The position numbers and the translations under genes were made by a program. From the sequence record OZ035730.1: a stretch of DNA of 40,216 nt. The stretch is one strand, 5' to 3'. The notes below the pieces were generated by a model, which saw only the letters and a program-made list of their open reading frames with translations, was not told the origin of the DNA and searched no databases. Source of the stretch: Kayfunavirus CLBP1. The stretch's first letter is position 1; each line of letters begins with the position of its first letter. Positions 1 to 20,342 of this stretch are shown piece after piece.

Positions 1-29
1 TACAAAACGATTAAAGGAGGAGGTAAAAC

Positions 30-293
30 ATGACGCAGATGGACTTAGAGAAGTTCCTCTTAATGCTAGATACTGAACGTGCTCGACTCATGCTGCAAGA
101 CCTGCGGGATGACTCTAAGCGTTCACCTCAGCTTTACAACGCCATTGAGAAGCTACTGGCTCGTCACAACTTCGTGCTAAGCAAGGTGTCTGTTGACGAG
201 AAGACGCTCGCTGATATGGAGGCCCTGAACGCAGAGTACGATAAGGTGCTCTCCGCTACGGAAGATAATGACACTGGGTATGGAGTGCAATAA
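30..293 (+). CDS. Small terminase subunit (T7 gp18-like, DNA maturation protein A)
   Basis: 87-aa ORF with SD GGAGGAGG upstream; translation MTQMDLEKFLLMLDTERARLMLQDL...RSPQLYNAIEKLL resembles T7 gp18 as I recall it; lies between the holin and the spanins as in T7. Confidence 0.8.
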   Translation: MTQMDLEKFLLMLDTERARLMLQDLRDDSKRSPQLYNAIEKLLARHNFVLSKVSVDEKTLADMEALNAEYDKVLSATEDNDTGYGVQ

Positions 294-302
294 ATCTCTT
301 AA

Positions 303-352
303 GTGTTAGACTCAAGGTCATTACTGTATGTAGTGGCCTTTATGGTTAACAC
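303..352 (+). promoter_or_regulatory. RNase III-type processing hairpin (R18.5-like), copy 1 of 3
   Basis: Upper stem AAGGUCAUUAC (313-323) pairs with GUAGUGGCCUU (329-339) including two G.U pairs, loop UGUAU; lower stem GUGUUA (303-308) with UAACAC (347-352). Same element recurs at 9753 and 16839 with compensatory changes. Confidence 0.6.
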
Positions 353-403
353 TAACTAGTGGAGGAGACTCTACGTGAAATCTGATAAACCGGGAGGGCA
401 CCT

Positions 404-856
404 ATGCTCGAATTTCTAAAGAGAGCGGCTCCGTGGTTACTCGCAGCAGTGATGTTTGCTGGGGGCTACCACACCGCTAACAATAAGTGGGAGGCTAAGG
501 TCAATGCAGAATACACCTCGAATCTTAAGGCATCGGAGGATACAAGGCTTGCTGTCCAAGCTGAAGTCAACAAAGTGTCCAAACGGTTTCAGGACGAAAT
601 GTCCTCGCTGGAAGGCAGCACTGATAGGATTATTGCTGACCTTCAGTCTGACAATAAGCGGTTGCGCATCCGAGTCAAACCTACGAGTGGAACCACGCAA
701 AGTGACGGTCGATGCGTCATTGATGGTTACGCCGAACTTGACGAACGAGATGCTAAACGTCTTATCGCCATCGGACTGAAAGGGGACTCTTGGATTAAAG
801 CACTACAGGATACTATTCGAAAACTTCAACAAGACAAGGAGAAAGACAATGGGTAA
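404..856 (+). CDS. Rz-like i-spanin (T7 gp18.5-like)
   Basis: 150 aa; SD GGGAGGG upstream; N-terminal hydrophobic segment LKRAAPWLLAAVMFAGG; motifs LEGSTDRIIADLQSDNKRLRIRVK and ELDERDAKRLIA match remembered T7 gp18.5. Confidence 0.85.
   Translation: MLEFLKRAAPWLLAAVMFAGGYHTANNKWEAKVNAEYTSNLKASEDTRLAVQAEVNKVSKRFQDEMSSLEGSTDRIIADLQSDNKRLRIRVKPTSGTTQSDGRCVIDGYAELDERDAKRLIAIGLKGDSWIKALQDTIRKLQQDKEKDNG
504..779 (+). CDS. Rz1-like o-spanin lipoprotein (gp18.7-like) embedded in +1 frame of gp18.5
   Basis: Embedded ORF contains hydrophobic stretch ALIGLLLTFSLTISGC with lipobox-like LTISGC followed by ASE; first ATG at 504 has SD GGGAGG. Track ORF 456 starts on TTG; true start uncertain. Confidence 0.6.
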   Translation: MQNTPRILRHRRIQGLLSKLKSTKCPNGFRTKCPRWKAALIGLLLTFSLTISGCASESNLRVEPRKVTVDASLMVTPNLTNEMLNVLSPSD

Positions 857-1640
857 TATTATTACTTTGAAAACTGACGTAGTTTGGCATTTTGCTACTG
901 GTACACCCTCTGGACTGAAGAACGCATCCGGTCACTTGTTATCTGGTACAATATACGTGAAAGTCCCAGCTAACGCCGAGTCTACAAGGATTACACTAAG
1001 CGACGGTACGTCTGCTACTGGTAATTTCTCCGATGGTGGCGGCTGGCCTCTACAATCAGGCAGTGTACGTCTGGAAGTGGTTGGTAACACAGAAGACGAC
1101 TTCCTTATTCTTAAAGTCACCAAGCTGAATGACAGTGGCGTCGGACTTGTTAAGGTAGAGTATACTTATCGGGAGTCACGTCCTGTATCCCACGCTGAGT
1201 ATTCTCTGGATACCTTCAACTGGTCAGGAACCCAAGTGTGTGCGGCTGGTCAGTTCACTAACCTAATGACTCTACCTTTAGTGAAGGGAGTGGATAGCGG
1301 CGTCGTTACTATCTCCGAAGGAAAGATGCTGTTCCCAGCTAAAGAGGGACTCAGTAGTGTAAACTTCGTCGTTCGGTTCGCTGGTGAGTTCCCTACAGCC
1401 TCAGCTCATAAGTGGCGATTGCAGCTTCGTAGACCAGATAACACTACCCTATCTTCCGTGACGGACACAGATGACCAGCAGTCATTCACCATTCGTGAGG
1501 CAGCCATCCATAGCTACATAGCTAATACAGACGACCCGTTCGTTACTACTGGCATCATGCTTGGCATTGAAGTTACCGGGTCTGAGGACCTTACTCTGTC
1601 CTCCCTGACTGTTCGCGTTGACTGCATCTTTAACTCTTAA
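849..1640 (+). CDS. Hypothetical protein (263 aa), no T7 counterpart at this position
   Basis: ATG with SD AAGGAG 7 nt upstream, overlaps gp18.5 stop by 8 nt, ends 12 nt before the large terminase start; phage-like codon usage; Ser/Thr/Gly-rich, no TM segment, no recognisable motif. Confidence 0.65.
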
Positions 1641-1651
1641 GAGGTGAAGCA

Positions 1652-3415
1652 TTGAGTAAAGACTTAGTGGCGCGTCAGGCGCTAATGACTGCACGTATGA
1701 AGGCAGACTTCGTGTTCTTCCTGTTCGTCCTGTGGAAAGCTCTGTCACTCCCAGTCCCGACTCGCTGTCAGATTGACATGGCGAAGAAACTATCGGCTGG
1801 GGACAACAGGCGCTTCATCCTACAGGCGTTCCGTGGTATAGGGAAGTCCTTCATTACGTGTGCCTTCGTTGTCTGGAAGCTATGGAACAACCCAGACTTG
1901 AAGTTCATGATTGTGTCTGCCTCAAAGGAACGAGCCGATGCTAACTCCATCTTCATCAAGCGTATCATCGACCTCATGCCTCAGCTTCGGGAACTCAAAC
2001 CTAAGCAGGGACAGCGAGATGCGGTTATCAGCTTCGACGTTGGACCAGCCAAGCCAGACCACTCACCTTCGGTTAAGTCAGTTGGTATCACAGGTCAGTT
2101 GACTGGTAGTCGTGCTGACATCTTGATTGCCGATGACGTAGAGGTTCCGAACAACTCAGCGACTCAGGCTGCACGAGACCGTCTGTCAGAGCTTGTGAAA
2201 GAGTTCGACGCTATCCTGAAGCCGGGAGGTACAATCATCTATCTGGGTACTCCTCAGAACGAGATGACCTTGTATCGTGAGCTGGAAGGCCGTGGGTACA
2301 CCACTACTATCTGGCCTGCTCGTTATCCACGCGACAGGAAGGACTGGCAGTCTTACGGCGACCGTCTGGCACCGATGCTTCAGGCAGAGCTTGAAGAGGA
2401 CCCTGAGGCCTTCTACTGGCGTCCGACCGATGAAGTTCGCTTCGACGATACTGACCTGAAGGAACGTGAGCTGTCCTATGGTAAAGCTGGCTTCGCTCTA
2501 CAGTTCATGCTTAACCCGAACCTGAGTGATGCCGAGAAGTACCCTCTGAAGCTCCGTGACCTTATCGTAGCAGACTTGGACCCAGCATCCAGCCCAATGG
2601 TCTACCAATGGTTGCCTAACCCTCAGAACAAGCGTGAGGACGTTCCTAACGTTGGACTCATGGGCGACTCATACCACACGTACCAGACTGTAGGTTCTGC
2701 CTTCAGTTCGTACACCCAGAAGATTCTGGTCATTGACCCTAGCGGTCGTGGTAAGGATGAAACTGGTTATGCGGTACTGTATCAGCTCAACGGCTACATC
2801 TTCGCTATGGAAGTCGGAGGTATGCGTGGTGGTTATGAAGACTCTACTCTGGAAGCGCTAGCTAAGATTGGTCGTAAGTGGAAGGTCAACGAATACGTCA
2901 TTGAGGGTAACTTCGGTGATGGTATGTACCTTGAGCTATTCAAGCCTGTAGCGGCCCGTATCCATCCTGCGGCTGTAACTGAAGTGAAGAGTAAGGGTCA
3001 GAAAGAACTCCGCATCTGTGACGTTCTGGAGCCTATCATGGGGTCTCACAGACTTATCGTCAACGCTGCTGCTATCGTCCAAGACTATCAGACAGCCGCT
3101 GATAAGGATGGTGTTCGTAACCCTATCTACTCTCTCTTCTACCAGATGACACGTATCTCTCGTGAACGCGGAGCCTTGGCACACGATGACCGACTTGATG
3201 CGCTGGCTATCGGTGTACAGTTCTTCGTTGAGTCTATGGCTAAGGATGCCAACAAAGGCGAACGTGAAGTCACTGAGGAGTGGCTGGAGGAACAGATGGA
3301 GAACCCACGGAAAGGCTTCGAGTCCATCCACACTGAGTTCTGGGACAATGGGGTCCGGGTAACTCACAATACGGACGACGAGCTGGGACTAGGGGCTTAC
3401 GTTACGTTCCACTAG
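1652..3415 (+). CDS. Large terminase subunit (T7 gp19-like, DNA maturation protein B)
   Basis: 587 aa; TTG start with SD GAGGTG; long collinear match to T7 gp19 ([103 protein letters not shown]). Confidence 0.95.
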
Positions 3416-3505
3416 CTGAATAACTATAGGCGAAAACTGAATTAATAAGCAGTTAGTAACCTATAGTTACTACCAGTCTAACCTACTGTTTTACAAGGAG
3501 TTTGG

Positions 3506-3528
3506 ACTTAACTATCACTATAGGGAAG
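3506..3528 (+). promoter_or_regulatory. Phage RNAP promoter (phiOR-like)
   Basis: ACTTAACTATCACTATAGGGAAG, exact match to the core repeated 11 times; +1 G at 3523; position after gene 19 as T7 phiOR. Confidence 0.75.
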
Positions 3529-3708
3529 ACCCCCGGTTACTTATAGTATTACTGTAGTGAATATACATATGCAGACTTTATGCAAGACCTTAGGAGGCAG
3601 ACTCAGAGTTCTTACCTAAGGCTTGCACCGATGGAAGGAGGGTGATATTAATCATAATCCCTCCAATACAGATAGTCACCGACCATAGATACAGGAGGTA
3701 TGTAGCAT

Positions 3709-3867
3709 ATGGAAAAGACCAAAGCTGTACTTAAAGCTCTGGCGACCAATCGAGCTACATACAGGTTTCTTGCTGCTGTTCTACTTGCTGCTGGCGTTAC
3801 TGCTGGAAGTAAGTGGGTCGGGTGGGTCGAGACTCTCGTATGTTCTCTGGTGTCTGAGTGTAATTAA
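3709..3867 (+). CDS. Small hydrophobic protein (gp19.5-like by position)
   Basis: 52 aa hand-translated MEKTKAVLKALATNRATYRFLAAVLLAAGVTAGSKWVGWVETLVCSLVSECN; strong SD AGGAGG 8 nt upstream; downstream of the phiOR-like promoter as T7 gene 19.5. Confidence 0.5.
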   Translation: MEKTKAVLKALATNRATYRFLAAVLLAAGVTAGSKWVGWVETLVCSLVSECN

Positions 3868-4104
3868 CGCAATCATGGTAACAATCAACGAAAGCAAGAC
3901 CTAAGGTCAGTTCATAGCTGACGCTACTCTACTGACCTTAGCTACTGTAGTCAAGGACTTTAGGTAACACCTTAAGAGAAGCTCACTTAGGGTCATCCTA
4001 CTGATTGGTCTATCCTAGTGTCGCCTGACCTACGGTCCTTGACCTACAGTGGCTGTGGCCTACAGTAGTGACGATGAGTTTTGGACCAAAAGTTTGAGAC
4101 CACA

Positions 4105-4295
4105 TCTCACAGTTCAAGAACCTAAAGTCTCCCCATAGGCCCTCTTTCAGTCCAGACCAAAGGCCCTACCCCAGTCTATCATAAGGTTGGACCGATGGTC
4201 AAGACGTTAGGTCGACGATAGGTTGAGGCTATGGCTTAGGGAAGGACGATAGGTTGGGACTATTGGTCTTCTTTGAGTCTCTATCTGTATAACCA
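4105..4295. repeat. Probable physical genome terminus and terminal-repeat region (one collapsed copy)
   Basis: TCTCACAGTTCAAGAACCTAAAGTCTCCCCATAGG at 4105 closely resembles the first bases of the T7 left end; GTCTCTATCTGTA near 4280 resembles the end of the T7 terminal repeat. Boundaries are approximate. Confidence 0.4.
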
Positions 4296-16838: not shown

Positions 16839-16882
16839 CTAGACTCAAGGTCATTCACATTGAGTGGCCTTTATGATTAGAC
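16839..16882 (+). promoter_or_regulatory. RNase III-type processing hairpin (R4.7-like), copy 3 of 3
   Basis: AAGGUCAUUCA (16847-16857) pairs with UGAGUGGCCUU (16861-16871), loop CAU; compensatory base-pair changes relative to copies 1 and 2. Confidence 0.6.
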
Positions 16883-16899
16883 TAAACGGAGGATTAACC

Positions 16900-17301
16900 A
16901 TGTTTGATTGCATTGAGTGGACCGGGTGTCGAGATAGTTTCGGCTACGGTATGCGAAAGGTCAACGGGAAGGTCCGTAGACTGCATCTGATAGCCTTCGA
17001 GGAGGCGAATGGTCCGATACCAGAGGGAATGGTCGTGAGGCACAAATGCGACAACCCAGCGTGCTACAATCCAGAACACTTGGAGCTGGGGACAAGGGCT
17101 GAGAACAATCACGATAGAGACATTAGAGGTCGAACCGCTAAAGGCGTGCGACATGGAAGCTCTAAGCTTACACCTGAAATAGTACAAGAGGCCAAGGTGC
17201 TTTACGCAGGAGGTGGCTGGACTCACCGCTCCTTAGGTAAGAAGTATGGAGTGGGTCACCGCACACTGGCTAGAGCAATTGGAGGAGAAACATGGACTTA
17301 A
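16900..17301 (+). CDS. HNH endonuclease (free-standing, between primase/helicase and DNA polymerase)
   Basis: ATG 16900 with SD GGAGGA 6 nt upstream; HKCDNPACYNPEHLELGTRAENNHD motif. Track start 16864 lies inside the RNase III hairpin. Confidence 0.75.
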   Translation: MFDCIEWTGCRDSFGYGMRKVNGKVRRLHLIAFEEANGPIPEGMVVRHKCDNPACYNPEHLELGTRAENNHDRDIRGRTAKGVRHGSSKLTPEIVQEAKVLYAGGGWTHRSLGKKYGVGHRTLARAIGGETWT

Positions 17302-19304
17302 GTAACGTATATGGGTCTGACATCGAGACCAATGGTCTACTTGATACAGTCTCCCAGTTTCACTGTGGGGTCCTGATTAACGCCGAGTCGAATGAGACCC
17401 TTAAGTATGGGGTAGCTCCGATGGTCGGTATCGTCGGTGGCTTCAAAGAGTATGTTCATAAAGTGGAAGAGATTGCCGCATCTCCTGATGGTATGCTGGT
17501 ATTCCATAACGGTATCAACTATGACGTCCCGGCTATCGACAAGCTGAAGCGTCTGTACTTTGGTAAACGATTTAACTTCCCGAAACACAAGATGATTGAT
17601 ACCTTGGTGCTGGGCCGCTTGATGTATCCAAACATTAAGTTCTCAGACATGGGCGCGGTGAAAGCTGGTCGTCTGCCACCTAAGATGATGGGGCGCCAGT
17701 CTCTTGAGGCTTGGGGCTATCGTCTAGGTGAGATGAAGGGTGAGTACAAACACGATTACGTTGCCAAATGCAAGGCTGAAGGTATCGAATATAAGGCTGG
17801 GGACGAATGGTTGTTCCCGTCTCAGGAGATGCTGGACTATAACGTTCAAGACGTTGTGGTCACACTGGCGTTGTTCAAGAAGTTCCTGACTGACAAGTAT
17901 TACTTCCAGTCTGAACAGTTCGCTTTCGACCAGATTTATGCGTTGCGTCTGGAACATGATGCTGCGTGGACCTGTGCGAAGATGGAACGTAACGGCTATC
18001 CGATGAACACCGAGATGGTCGAAGGCTTATATCGTGAACTCACCGTCAAACGTGCAGAGCTGCTGGACAAGCTGCGTTCGACTTTCGGTAGCTGGTATGC
18101 ACCGAAGGGAGGCAAGGAGTTCTTCAAGCACCCACGTACAGGCAAGGACCTTCCTAAGTATCCGCGAGTCGTGTATCCTAAGGTCGGTGGCATCTTTAAG
18201 AAGCCGAAGAACAAAGCTCAACGATTAGGTCTTGAGCCTTGCGAGTTCGACTCACGAGACACGATGGAAGGAGCGCCATTCACGCCAATAACTTACGTTG
18301 AGTTTAATCCGGGAAGCGGAGACCACTTAGCGAAAGTCCTGATGGAGCGTGGCTGGGAACCTGTGGACTTCACTGACACCGGGAAGCCTGTAGTCGATGA
18401 CGAGACGTTAGAACACGTTAAGTTACCAGACGAAGAGGCTCAGGCTTGCGTAGAGCTGGTCCGTGAGTATCTGGTAGTCCAGAAGCGCATCGGTCAGGCG
18501 GCTGAAGGTAAGAACGCATGGTTGAAACTTGTAGGTCCAGACGGACGTATGCACGGTTCAATCAACCCATGTGGTGCAGTAACCGGACGTGCGACCCATA
18601 GTACACCAAACATGGCTCAGGTCCCGGCTAACGGTGCCCCATACGGTGAGACTTGCCGTGGTGCTTTCGGTGCAGCGTGGAACAAGAAGGACGGCAAGCC
18701 AGACCCTTGGATTCAAGTAGGTGTGGATGCCTCAGGTCTTGAGCTTCGTTGTCTGGGGAACCGAGCGGCTCCGTTTGATGGTGGTGACTATGCGAAGACT
18801 GTAGTCGAAGGTGACATCCACTGGGCAAACGCAGTCAACGCTGGACTAGCACCTAACGTCCCACGCGACAAGTCTAGCCATGACCATGATGCTTTCCGTA
18901 ATAACGCTAAGACGTTCATCTATGCGTTCCTGTATGGTGCAGGGGCCGCTAAGATTGGACTGATAGTCGGAGGTGGTAAGAAGGAGGGTTCAGCTCTCAT
19001 GAAGAAATTCATTGAGGGTACACCAGCTATCAAGGACCTCAGGGAAGCTGTACAGAACACGCTCATCTCCGAGTCCAAATGGGTGGACGGTGAGAACATC
19101 GTGAAGTGGAAACGTCGCTGGCTGAAAGGTCTGGATGGTAGACGCATTCACATCCGGTCGCCACACTCAGCACTTAACGCTCTACTTCAGGGTGACGGTG
19201 CGGTTGTCTGTAAACACTGGATTGTTGAGACTGAACGTATGCTTGAAGAGGCCGGGTATGTCCACGGCTGGGAAGGAGACTTTGCGTACATGGCATGGGT
19301 GCAT
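17292..19304 (+). CDS. DNA polymerase (T7 gp5-like), exon 1
   Basis: Collinear with remembered T7 DNA polymerase from DIETNGLL through FAYMAWVH; frame then hits TAA at 19305-19307, ~50 residues before the expected C-terminus. Confidence 0.9.
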
Positions 19305-19902
19305 TAACATCATGGTGCACATTAAATCTGGTGAACTCGGTGAACTCCTAATGGGACAATACCGAGCCAAGCCATAGGGAGGATGTATGAGAGGCAAGAA
19401 GTTAATTCTTGAGGCCACTGAGACTGGCTGCATAATCCCTACGTCACATAAATTGAATCAGGATGGATACTTCCGAAAGAGGACTAACGGTGTCCTTGAG
19501 ATGTATCATAGAACTGTATGGATTAAAGCTAATGGTCCAATACCTGAAGGTTTCGAAGTAGACCACAAGTGTCGTAATAGAGCTTGTTGCAACGTCGAAC
19601 ATCTACAAGTATTATACCGGGACTCACACTTAGTCAAGACCAACAAAGAGCGATACGCTGCTAGGAAGCTAGAAGCACGAGACTACTGGGTAGAGACTGG
19701 GTGTACTGGAACGAAGTTAGCCGAAGTATTCAATGTGTCGTTCTCAGCCGCCTGTGGGTGGATTAGAGAGTGGAAGGCGTAGAGACTATCCGAAAGGAGT
19801 AGGGCCGTGGGTGAGATTCCCACGTAACCCGAAGCGCCAGACAGTCACCTCAAAGACTGATGATATAGTCCGACACTTCCAGTAATGGGAGAATACAGAA
19901 AG
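19305..19902 (+). mobile_element. Group I intron (about 598 nt) interrupting the DNA polymerase gene, carrying an HNH endonuclease ORF
   Basis: Separates two polymerase segments in different frames; exon end GUGCAU (19299-19304) pairs with intron GUGCAC (19315-19320); CAUC (19308-19311) complements exon-2 GAUG; last intron base is G (19902); GATATAGTCCGAC (19862-19874) resembles the group I P7 3' strand. Confidence 0.75.
19387..19782 (+). CDS. Intron-encoded HNH homing endonuclease
   Basis: 131 aa; own SD GGGAGG; EVDHKCRNRACCNVEHLQ HNH/zinc motif; lies entirely inside the intron. Confidence 0.8.
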   Translation: MRGKKLILEATETGCIIPTSHKLNQDGYFRKRTNGVLEMYHRTVWIKANGPIPEGFEVDHKCRNRACCNVEHLQVLYRDSHLVKTNKERYAARKLEARDYWVETGCTGTKLAEVFNVSFSAACGWIREWKA

Positions 19903-20058
19903 GATGAGTTACAGATTGCTTGTCGTACTCAAGAAATAGCAGAACGTACAGTAGAAATTGCTCAACTTGCTATGCGTAAGGTGGGTGAGTTCTATAACTT
20001 TAAATGTGTCCTTGATACCGAAGGTAAGATTGGACCAACGTGGAAGGAGTGTCACTAA
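19903..20058 (+). CDS. DNA polymerase (T7 gp5-like), exon 2 (C-terminal 51 codons)
   Basis: Hand-translated DELQIACRTQEIAERTVEIAQLAMRKVGEFYNFKCVLDTEGKIGPTWKECH, aligns with T7 DNAP C-terminus DEIQVGCRTEEIAQ...DTEGKMGPNWAICH; no SD before this segment. Confidence 0.85.
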   Translation, partial: DELQIACRTQEIAERTVEIAQLAMRKVGEFYNFKCVLDTEGKIGPTWKECH

Positions 20059-20342
20059 TGGCTATTACTAAACGTATTCGTGTGAGTTTTGACCTGAAGA
20101 TGGTCGTTAGCTCAAAGGAAGAGGAGACCATGTGTCGCCAACTGGCTGAGATGACTAAAGCCTACGCTGAGGGTGAGAAGCTGGATGGACTTCAGTTGGC
20201 TCTGGTCAAAGCAGCAATCGAGTCAGGCCCTGAGTCTGCTCTTGAAATTGCCGTCAAGAAGGTCATCAAAAAGGAGCTGGTAGATGCCTTTGGTGACGAC
20301 CAGTTCGGTGTGTCAAACCTGCGATTCGAGGTCAAACGATGA
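20058..20342 (+). CDS. gp5.5-like protein
   Basis: Start MAITKRIRVSFDL resembles remembered T7 gp5.5 MAMTKKFKVSFDV; SD GGAGT upstream; ATG overlaps polymerase stop (TAATG). Confidence 0.65.
   Translation: MAITKRIRVSFDLKMVVSSKEEETMCRQLAEMTKAYAEGEKLDGLQLALVKAAIESGPESALEIAVKKVIKKELVDAFGDDQFGVSNLRFEVKR

Follow-up and report, generated by a model that had tools for sequence, protein, structure and literature searches.

How can gene 5 of Kayfunavirus CLBP1, whose reading frame ends immediately before the codon for a catalytic aspartate, give rise to a complete family A DNA polymerase? The window analysed here, which is the whole stretch of 40,216 nucleotides (nt) in sequence record OZ035730.1, is a circularly permuted version of Escherichia phage CLB_P1 (KC109329.1; Autographiviridae, Studiervirinae, Kayfunavirus; K1F-like) and is 2 nt shorter, with positions 19100-20100 corresponding to KC109329 14830-15830 at 100% identity and positions 1-4270 corresponding to KC109329 35949-40218. 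A reading of this DNA from its letters and a list of its open reading frames (ORFs), hereafter the sequence-only reading, had proposed that gene 5 is split by a group I intron carrying an HNH homing endonuclease gene. Having compared the locus with its relatives, we are nearly certain that gene 5 is interrupted by a mobile IA2-type group I intron with an HNH gene, an element that would be capable of both self-splicing and homing. All coordinates given below refer to the window, and all features described lie on the plus strand.

Gene 5 is split directly before the motif C aspartate codon

Exon 1 of gene 5 (17292-19304) comprises 671 codons, the last of which is the His CAU of ...FAYMAWVH. In the ORF list it corresponds to the ORF at 17292-19307, which specifies a 671-amino-acid protein with the C-terminus ...GDFAYMAWVH and is closed by a TAA directly after the His codon at 19305-19307. 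Exon 1 aligns to T7 gp5 residues 4-653. Exon 2 (19903-20058; 51 codons and a stop, beginning with DELQIACRTQ) encodes DELQIACRTQEIAE...GPTWKECH, and its first residue is the catalytic Asp equivalent to T7 D654; the T7 polymerase has two catalytic carboxylates, and D654 is among them. The gap between the exons measures 598 nt, leaving a remainder of 1 when divided by three, and exon 2 lies in a different frame from exon 1.

When position 19304 is joined to 19903 (...GGGTGCAT|GATGAGTTA...), the product has 722 amino acids and matches AGD81054.1, the GenBank entry 'DNA polymerase [Escherichia phage CLB_P1]', at every residue. Residues 9-722 of this spliced protein align with T7 DNA polymerase (6n7w_H residues 4-704) with E = 4.7e-272 and gap-free at the junction, where FAYMAWVH|DELQ corresponds to T7 FAYMAWVH653|D654EIQ, so that the cut falls directly 5' of the motif C Asp codon. 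These results bear out the gene layout put forward in the sequence-only reading, namely a polymerase frame that stops right after ...FAYMAWVH, a conserved C-terminus located 598 nt downstream in another frame and lacking a Shine-Dalgarno sequence, and a splice junction at 19304/19903, which is the same join as that made in GenBank.

An intronless allele is found in Klebsiella phage SEA1f (Kayfunavirus, record L012 of our phage collection), where GGGTTCAC|GATGAG runs uninterrupted and encodes AWVHDELQ (exon-junction sequence ...GCTTGGGTTCAC GATGAGCTACAG...), demonstrating the precise absence of the intron. The codon before the splice site is His CAU in each of the 13 intron-bearing alleles compared below, and CAC in the intronless SEA1f. 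At this position, directly before the catalytic Asp codon, an imprecise deletion of the intron would be lethal.

The gene 5 coding sequence (CDS) in KC109329 is already joined from two pieces, with a 'homing endonuclease gp5.3' between them and a redundant 'gp5.4 DNA polymerase' CDS, and gene 5 of K1F is annotated likewise as a join. In several related records no join is made, and the polymerase appears as two or three seemingly unrelated CDSs. For annotation, this means that the 671-amino-acid ORF and the 57-amino-acid 'gp5.4' ORF are to be read as the two exons of one essential polymerase gene, which intron-blind gene callers split.

The intervening RNA has a conserved and covarying group I fold

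The intron (19305-19902; 598 nt) is IA2-like and lacks P2; its first three bases, UAA, are read as a stop codon in the frame of exon 1, and its last base is G. This assignment is based on Rfam, covariation and the intronless allele. Searching the phage collection with the intron as query gave 69 records, and in 43 of these a single match covers at least 80% of it. We aligned 13 introns from which the ORF had been removed, comprising that of CLB_P1 and twelve homologs inserted at the same H|DE site: those of Salmonella phage CHRF_10037, coliphage 13a, Aeromonas phage PT2, Vibrio phage Vp_R1 (Grimontviridae), Aeromonas phage MQM1, the coliphages PE006, SU7 and PAS59 (Gordonclarkvirinae), Edwardsiella phage DT115P1 and three uncultivated viral contigs. 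Their hosts belong to at least five phage lineages, covering Kayfunavirus, Teseptimavirus, other Autographiviridae, Grimontviridae, Gordonclarkvirinae and an unclassified Aeromonas phage. The structure tested on this alignment was drawn from the CLB_P1 sequence and consisted of P1, P3, P4, P5, P6, P6a, P7, P7.1, P7.2, P8, P9 and P10.

Across the alignment, 97.2% of cells form a standard pair, compared to 36.6-42.6% in controls in which the 3' partners were shifted by 1-3 columns. Both sides have changed in 30 of the 64 pairs (shuffle mean 16.8) and in 107 cells (shuffle mean 28.3), and neither value was reached in any of 500 shuffles. Compensatory changes are seen in P1, P3, P4, P5, P6, P6a, P7.2, P8, P9 and P10, and RNAalifold, run on the same alignment without a supplied structure, recovers P1, P3, P4, P5, P6, P6a, P7.1, P8 and P9. 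In addition, the guide matches the host exon 1 everywhere, with GUGCAU/GUGCAC in the Studiervirinae, AUGCAU/GUGCAU in Vp_R1 and the Gordonclarkvirinae, and CCAU/GUGG in MQM1. Taken together, the group I fold (P1, P3-P9, P7.1/P7.2 and P10) is complete, conserved and covarying across the homologs, and the assignment of the element to the group I class, which had been made from a single sequence, is upheld by a full fold with compensatory changes.

The helices that contact the exons are P1 and P10. In the P1 hairpin (19299-19320), exon bases GUGCAU together with intron bases UA (19299-19306) pair with the internal guide sequence UGGUGCAC (19313-19320), which places the wobble pair U19304.G19315 at the 5' splice site; this U.G is invariant in 13/13 introns. 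The outer G-C pair of P1 is replaced by A-U in step with the exon sequence in four homologs, and the first intron pair, which is U.G in CLB_P1, is A-U in 11 others. The GUGCAU/GUGCAC helix ending in U.G that the sequence-only reading had drawn is therefore recovered here with two intron pairs added. P10 is predicted to form between the guide segment UCAU (19310-19313) and exon-2 AUGA (19904-19907), with 92.5% of cells paired and three compensatory pairs; the loop bases just 5' of the guide pair with exon 2 from +2 on, making 5-7 base pairs (bp) in most homologs and covarying with exon 2. P10 had previously been proposed in another register, CAUC (19308-19311) with GAUG (19903-19906). That helix can be drawn in CLB_P1, where it is equally long, but among the 13 homologs it contains a mismatch in eight and is gapped or fails in two others, and we rejected it in favour of the UCAU/AUGA register, which covaries with exon 2.

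The helices of the first half of the core are likewise supported. The 5' strand of P3 (UCUGGUG, 19327-19333) pairs with CGCCAGA (19835-19841) over 7 bp that are 100% paired in all 13 introns, five of the seven pairs being compensatory. P4 and P5 occupy 19337-19365, with P4 formed by 19337-19342/19360-19365 and P5 by 19346-19348/19354-19356, and they are joined by A-rich J4/5 (AA) and J5/4 (CAA). In two homologs the P4 strands CGGU/ACCG have become CAGG/CCUG, and compensatory pairs number 2/6 in P4 and 2/3 in P5. The 5' strands of P6 (GCC) and P6a (CCAU) lie at 19366-19375 and have as their partners GGC (19776-19778) and GUGG (19770-19773), respectively, with one compensatory pair in P6 and three of four in P6a. 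Since the 3' strands of P6a and P6 are formed by the last codons of the HNH gene (GAG UGG AAG GCG UAG), the HNH ORF sits in the P6a loop.

P7 begins two bases past the HNH stop codon. The segment from 19784 to 19830 contains the 5' strand of P7 (GACUAU, 19784-19789), P7.1 (CC GAAA GG, 19790-19797), an invariant GUA linker (19799-19801) and P7.2 (19802-19830), in whose inner stem three of six pairs are compensatory. The presence of P7.1 and P7.2 between P7 and P3', linked by G-U-A, is the hallmark of subgroup IA2 (PMC3428280), and the CLB_P1 intron has this arrangement. It is followed by the P8 hairpin (19842-19859), in which CAGUC and GACUG enclose an 8-nt loop, with 98.5% of cells paired and four of five pairs compensatory. 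The 3' strand of P7 (AUAGUC, 19865-19870) lies within the conserved GAUAUAGUCCGAC, is invariant in 13/13 introns and forms the core pseudoknot with P3. The sequence near the 3' end that had been likened to the group I P7/S element, GATATAGTCCGAC at 19862-19874, does hold this strand. The intron is completed by the P9 hairpin and 3' tail (19876-19902), with CUUCC/GGGAG at 19876-19891, four of five pairs compensatory and a tail running to G19902; a terminal G had been anticipated, and it is invariant in 13/13 introns. Although P2 is absent from the CLB_P1 intron, a P2 hairpin is present in MQM1 and DT115P1.

We also scanned with the 14-mer ATGATATAGTCCGA, which retrieves many group I introns from viral contigs. 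These are mostly other kinds of group I introns, and the same-site relatives among them are only L024, L053 and L088.

Rfam matches and points that weigh against the intron

A search of the whole window against Rfam at gathering thresholds gave no match. Reporting by E-value instead yields a full-length match (model positions 1-253) of the group I catalytic intron family RF00028 to 19295-19892, with E = 2.5e-7, and in this alignment the ORF appears as one long insertion and P2 as a deletion. The gathering score of RF00028 is passed by four relatives, namely the same-site intron of Aeromonas phage MQM1, which has P2 (L007, 61 bits), and the related ORF-less introns L047 (81.2 bits), L011 (58.9 bits) and L090 (55.7 bits). 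The lower score of the CLB_P1 intron is likely due to the absent P2 and the ORF insert of about 400 nt. The Rfam check proposed in the sequence-only reading thus succeeds in that the full model matches, and falls short in that the match stays below the gathering threshold. That reading had also named failure of any group I model to fold the region as grounds for its refutation; such an outcome would have been ambiguous without comparative data.

Several observations count against an active group I intron at this locus. The CLB_P1 intron scores 35.7 bits, under the RF00028 gathering threshold of 50 bits. P10 in CLB_P1 is only 4 bp long and its register is ambiguous there, while P7 and P7.1, being invariant in 13/13 introns, fit the model but give no covariation evidence. 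The fold energy of the single ORF-deleted sequence has z = -1.81 and was matched by 8 of 200 shuffles; at so marginal a z-score thermodynamics alone is not convincing, and we did not rely on the minimum-free-energy fold of the ORF-deleted CLB_P1 intron, even though it contains most of the helices of the model. Finally, splicing in CLB_P1 itself is inferred from sequence, and the homing endonuclease activity and its target site are predicted by analogy with I-TslI.

The P6a loop carries an intact HNH endonuclease gene

The HNH homing endonuclease gene within the intron (19387-19782; K1F gp5.3 / I-TslI type) encodes 131 amino acids, is annotated as AGD81055.1 and is preceded by a ribosome-binding site, GGGAGG, at 19377-19382. 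Its product matches Pfam HNH_3 (PF13392) with 57.4 bits against a cut-off of 24.8 and phrog_6254 'HNH endonuclease' with E = 2.1e-46, in agreement with the earlier proposal that the intervening segment has an HNH ORF with a Shine-Dalgarno sequence and ATG of its own. The ORF is intact in 13/13 introns, in which H41, H60, C62, C67, N69 and H72 are invariant, and every intron-borne copy has the conserved C-terminal segment ...TG..LA..FGVSF..C.WIR.WK. The HNH protein was found on dozens of contigs. A PDB sequence search with the HNH protein gave nothing meaningful (best E = 0.58), and an NCBIfam search with it gave no match.

We considered CCATAGGGAGGA, located upstream of the HNH ORF, as a candidate phage promoter and rejected it, as it is not within three mismatches of CACTATAGGGAGA, the core of the genome's real promoters. 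A promoter-core scan revealed no phage promoter within the intron. Elsewhere in the window, likely phage RNA polymerase promoters are marked by a T7-type core, CACTATAGG(G/A), that deviates from CACTATAGGGAGA at 0-3 positions and occurs at 3516, 9742, 11788, 21774, 24595, 25604, 30286 and 37569.

An additional, free-standing HNH gene (16864-17301; 145 amino acids; HNH_3, 63.1 bits; annotated 'gp7.7-like') lies just upstream and overlaps the start of gene 5 by 10 nt. About 400 nt in this region (roughly 16908-17312) have no K1F counterpart, so that the upstream gene is an insertion relative to K1F. With the HNH gene in the intron and this upstream gene, gene 5 of CLB_P1 is associated with two homing-endonuclease genes.

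Alternative explanations for the split gene

A different way to account for the split gene would be a polymerase made as two polypeptides, of 671 amino acids and of 57 amino acids from the ATG at 19885, which assemble without splicing and whose genes merely flank a free-standing HNH gene. GenBank indeed lists 19885-20058 as a separate 'gp5.4 DNA polymerase' CDS, the ATG at 19885 is in frame with exon 2, and free-standing HNH genes adjoin gene 5 elsewhere, as seen for T3 gp5.3 and for the ORF at 16864-17301 described above. However, we found no purine-rich ribosome-binding site upstream of this ATG (GTCCGACACTTCCAGTA), which moreover lies within the P9 helix, and the two chains would be broken between the H and the D of catalytic motif C. 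A further difficulty is that a full group I fold, with compensatory changes in 30 pairs, has been retained by the non-coding RNA in different phage families, which has no explanation without splicing, and that the guide sequence covaries with the exon sequence. We regard two separately made polypeptides as very improbable. The ORF at 19885-20058 (MGEYRKDELQ..., 57 amino acids) consists of six codons from the P9 hairpin and 3' tail of the intron followed by exon 2, and has no ribosome-binding site.

The low Rfam score and the weak fold-energy z-score could also be expected if the insertion were a decayed, non-splicing remnant of an intron or an assembly artefact, with gene 5 a pseudogene in the record. 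Yet at least 10 independently sequenced K1F-like genomes contain this intron with 98.8-99.5% identity, its HNH protein recurs on dozens of contigs, and every core helix is intact in the CLB_P1 copy. These are also viable lytic phages, and the gene 5 polymerase is established as essential in T7; decay or artefact consequently carries hardly any weight for us. Joining of the two parts at the level of protein or translation, by an intein, ribosomal bypassing or frameshifting, has precedents in that inteins and a 50-nt translational bypass are generally known from phage genes. Here, these models are excluded by the reading frames, and we assign them a vanishingly small probability: the 598-nt insert is not a multiple of three, as had been pointed out in the sequence-only reading when it discounted an intein or readthrough, and a TAA opens the insert in the exon 1 frame, with many more stops following. 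An intein would be expected as an in-frame, stop-free insertion with protein-splicing blocks, which the 598-nt insert is not, and the only Pfam match of the inserted ORF is HNH_3, with no intein splicing domain. To our knowledge, a translational bypass of 598 nt would lie far beyond any known case.

A mobile, self-splicing group I intron therefore remains our preferred account of gene 5. The exon and intron boundaries, the covarying fold, the guides matched to their exons, the intact HNH gene and the polymorphism for presence or absence of the intron are all directly observed.

A proposed pathway for splicing and homing

Based on the standard group I mechanism and on analogy with the PhiI and W31 introns, which by motif correspondence occupy the same site, we propose the following pathway, in which catalysis, timing and endonuclease activity are predicted from those systems. 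The pre-mRNA would fold into the P3-P9 core, and the internal guide sequence (19313-19320) would pair with the last six bases of exon 1 and present U19304.G19315, after which an external guanosine could attack following U19304. The guide loop would then hold exon 2 through P10 while the terminal G19902 enters the guanosine site, and exon ligation would restore ...WVH-DELQ... and with it the 722-amino-acid polymerase. Translation of the 131-amino-acid HNH protein would start from the gene's own ribosome-binding site within the P6a loop. In mixed infections, by analogy with I-TslI, the protein might nick or cut intronless gene 5 near the insertion site, and repair would copy the intron in, thereby achieving homing.

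Unspliced mRNA would end translation at the UAA formed by the first three intron bases, and its product would have neither the motif C Asp nor the C-terminus. More speculatively, a UAA placed exactly at the splice site in the K1F-type variant would make polymerase synthesis strictly dependent on splicing.

Distribution of the intron across phage families

The same ribozyme with its HNH gene is found at the H|DE site in Kayfunavirus, Teseptimavirus, other Autographiviridae, Grimontviridae, Gordonclarkvirinae and an unclassified 63-kb Aeromonas phage. In those other families, the ribozyme core shares 79-85% nucleotide identity and the HNH protein 54-60%, whereas the polymerase exons share only 36-45% at the protein level. 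Protein identities were used for the exons because nucleotide identities of divergent exons proved to be alignment artefacts, reaching 100% over tiny overlaps, and were discarded. Higher conservation of the intron than of the gene around it, combined with a guide retuned to each host, points to cross-family transfer. The occupation of one identical site in polymerases this divergent is also indirect support for endonuclease-driven homing. On present comparisons we give roughly even chances to the idea that the I-TslI-type intron is a pan-family mobile element that has undergone repeated cross-family horizontal transfer, and that may not have been catalogued as such.

Among the carriers, PE006 (L008), SU7 (L009), PAS59 (L013) and Vp_R1 (L006) are phages of 75-112 kb, unrelated to T7, in which this intron and its HNH gene occupy the H|DE site of the polymerase gene; their records list the pieces individually as 'DNA polymerase' and 'hypothetical' CDSs and do not join them. 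The polymerase CDS of MQM1 (L007) is joined from three pieces, which implies two introns, and the ORF of its H|DE intron runs through P7 into P7.1. Related group I introns at another position, just before ...GLLYGATVN in the motif B region, occur in Salmonella phage Arash (L011, 849-1120) and in the uncultivated viral contig L049 (approximately 3270-3990). The Arash intron is ORF-less and is the L011 intron that passes RF00028 with 58.9 bits, and the 3' part of the CLB_P1 intron matches it at 74%. In CHRF_10037 (L003, Kayfunavirus SH4), the ribozyme core is 97% identical to that of CLB_P1, whereas the HNH protein is only 81% identical. This contrast suggests that ORF and ribozyme may have had separate histories through recombination within the intron.

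Comparison with known polymerase gene introns

Consistent with the statement in the sequence-only reading that group I introns are known in gene 5 of T7 relatives, the closest counterparts of the CLB_P1 intron are found in K1F and in PhiI and W31. For K1F, the polymerase gene has been noted to contain a putative group I intron (PMC4925675). In K1F and other Kayfunavirus genomes (DQ111067 / AM084414), the intron is 99.3% identical over 598 nt, with the same kind of join and the same 131-amino-acid gp5.3. There is essentially no difference between the K1F and CLB_P1 introns, and of the two phages CLB_P1 alone has the free-standing HNH gene just upstream of gene 5.

The gene 5 introns of PhiI and W31 belong to subgroup IA2, have P7.1 and P7.2, carry an HNH ORF in P6a and are inserted at site 881, as numbered in E. 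coli Pol I (PMC3428280), and a second account gives a length of 601 nt with the 131-amino-acid I-TslI (PMC1995217). The CLB_P1 intron shares with them gene 5 as the host, the H|D site (by motif correspondence), the P7.1-GUA-P7.2 arrangement and a P6a HNH ORF of 131 amino acids. Its insertion in motif C (T7 H653|D654) and the position of its ORF between the P6a strands place it in the PhiI/W31 family, first described in 2004 (J Bacteriol 186:8153, cited in PMC3428280 and PMC1995217). We take E. coli H881-D882-E883 to be the same motif C as T7 H653/D654, which would make site 881 the CLB_P1 site. In 2004, Bonocora and Shub reportedly showed splicing of the PhiI and W31 introns in vivo as well as their self-splicing in vitro.

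PhiI and W31 themselves (AY769989/AY769990) were compared by published description, and coliphage 13a, whose intron of 601 nt and ORF of 131 amino acids have the sizes tabulated for PhiI and W31, was compared by sequence. The 13a intron is 83% identical to that of CLB_P1 over the whole intron, 93% in the ribozyme core and 77% in the HNH protein. Unlike introns of the PhiI/13a type, that of CLB_P1 is 598 rather than 601 nt long and starts with UAACA rather than AAAC(U/A)..., so that translation stops exactly at the splice site in CLB_P1. Furthermore, its first intron pair in P1 is U.G and not A-U, and its P10 has 4 bp compared to 5-7 bp.

The HNH protein of the intron also resembles T3 gp5.3 (L134, 537-842), with 49% identity over 95 amino acids. 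T3 gp5.3, reportedly named F-TslI by Bonocora and Shub, is free-standing and encoded directly downstream of T3 gene 5; at 101 amino acids, it is without the C-terminal segment of about 35 residues present in every intron-borne copy. Bonocora and Shub are said to have proposed in 2009 that a free-standing endonuclease pre-adapted to the site invaded an intron, and the likeness to T3 gp5.3 fits such an origin.

Group I introns with HNH genes in family A polymerase genes are also known from the Bacillus phages SPO1, SP82 and Bastille (I-HmuI, I-HmuII and I-BasI) and from cyanophage Pf-WMP3 (I-PfoP3I). These differ from the CLB_P1 intron in lying at sites 674-676 rather than 881 (E. coli Pol I numbering), in having ORFs of 161-188 amino acids and in their hosts. 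Several of the enzymes of these introns are nicking enzymes (PMC3428280, PMC8845596), and I-TslI is listed among the intron-encoded nicking enzymes in the second of them (PMC8845596). Taken together, these comparisons identify the CLB_P1 intron as one that is already known, annotated with the same junction in GenBank, and as a K1F-type variant of the PhiI/W31 I-TslI intron. It involves no new mechanism; what is added here is a well-supported comparative secondary structure for the K1F-type variant and the spread of the intron across phage families.

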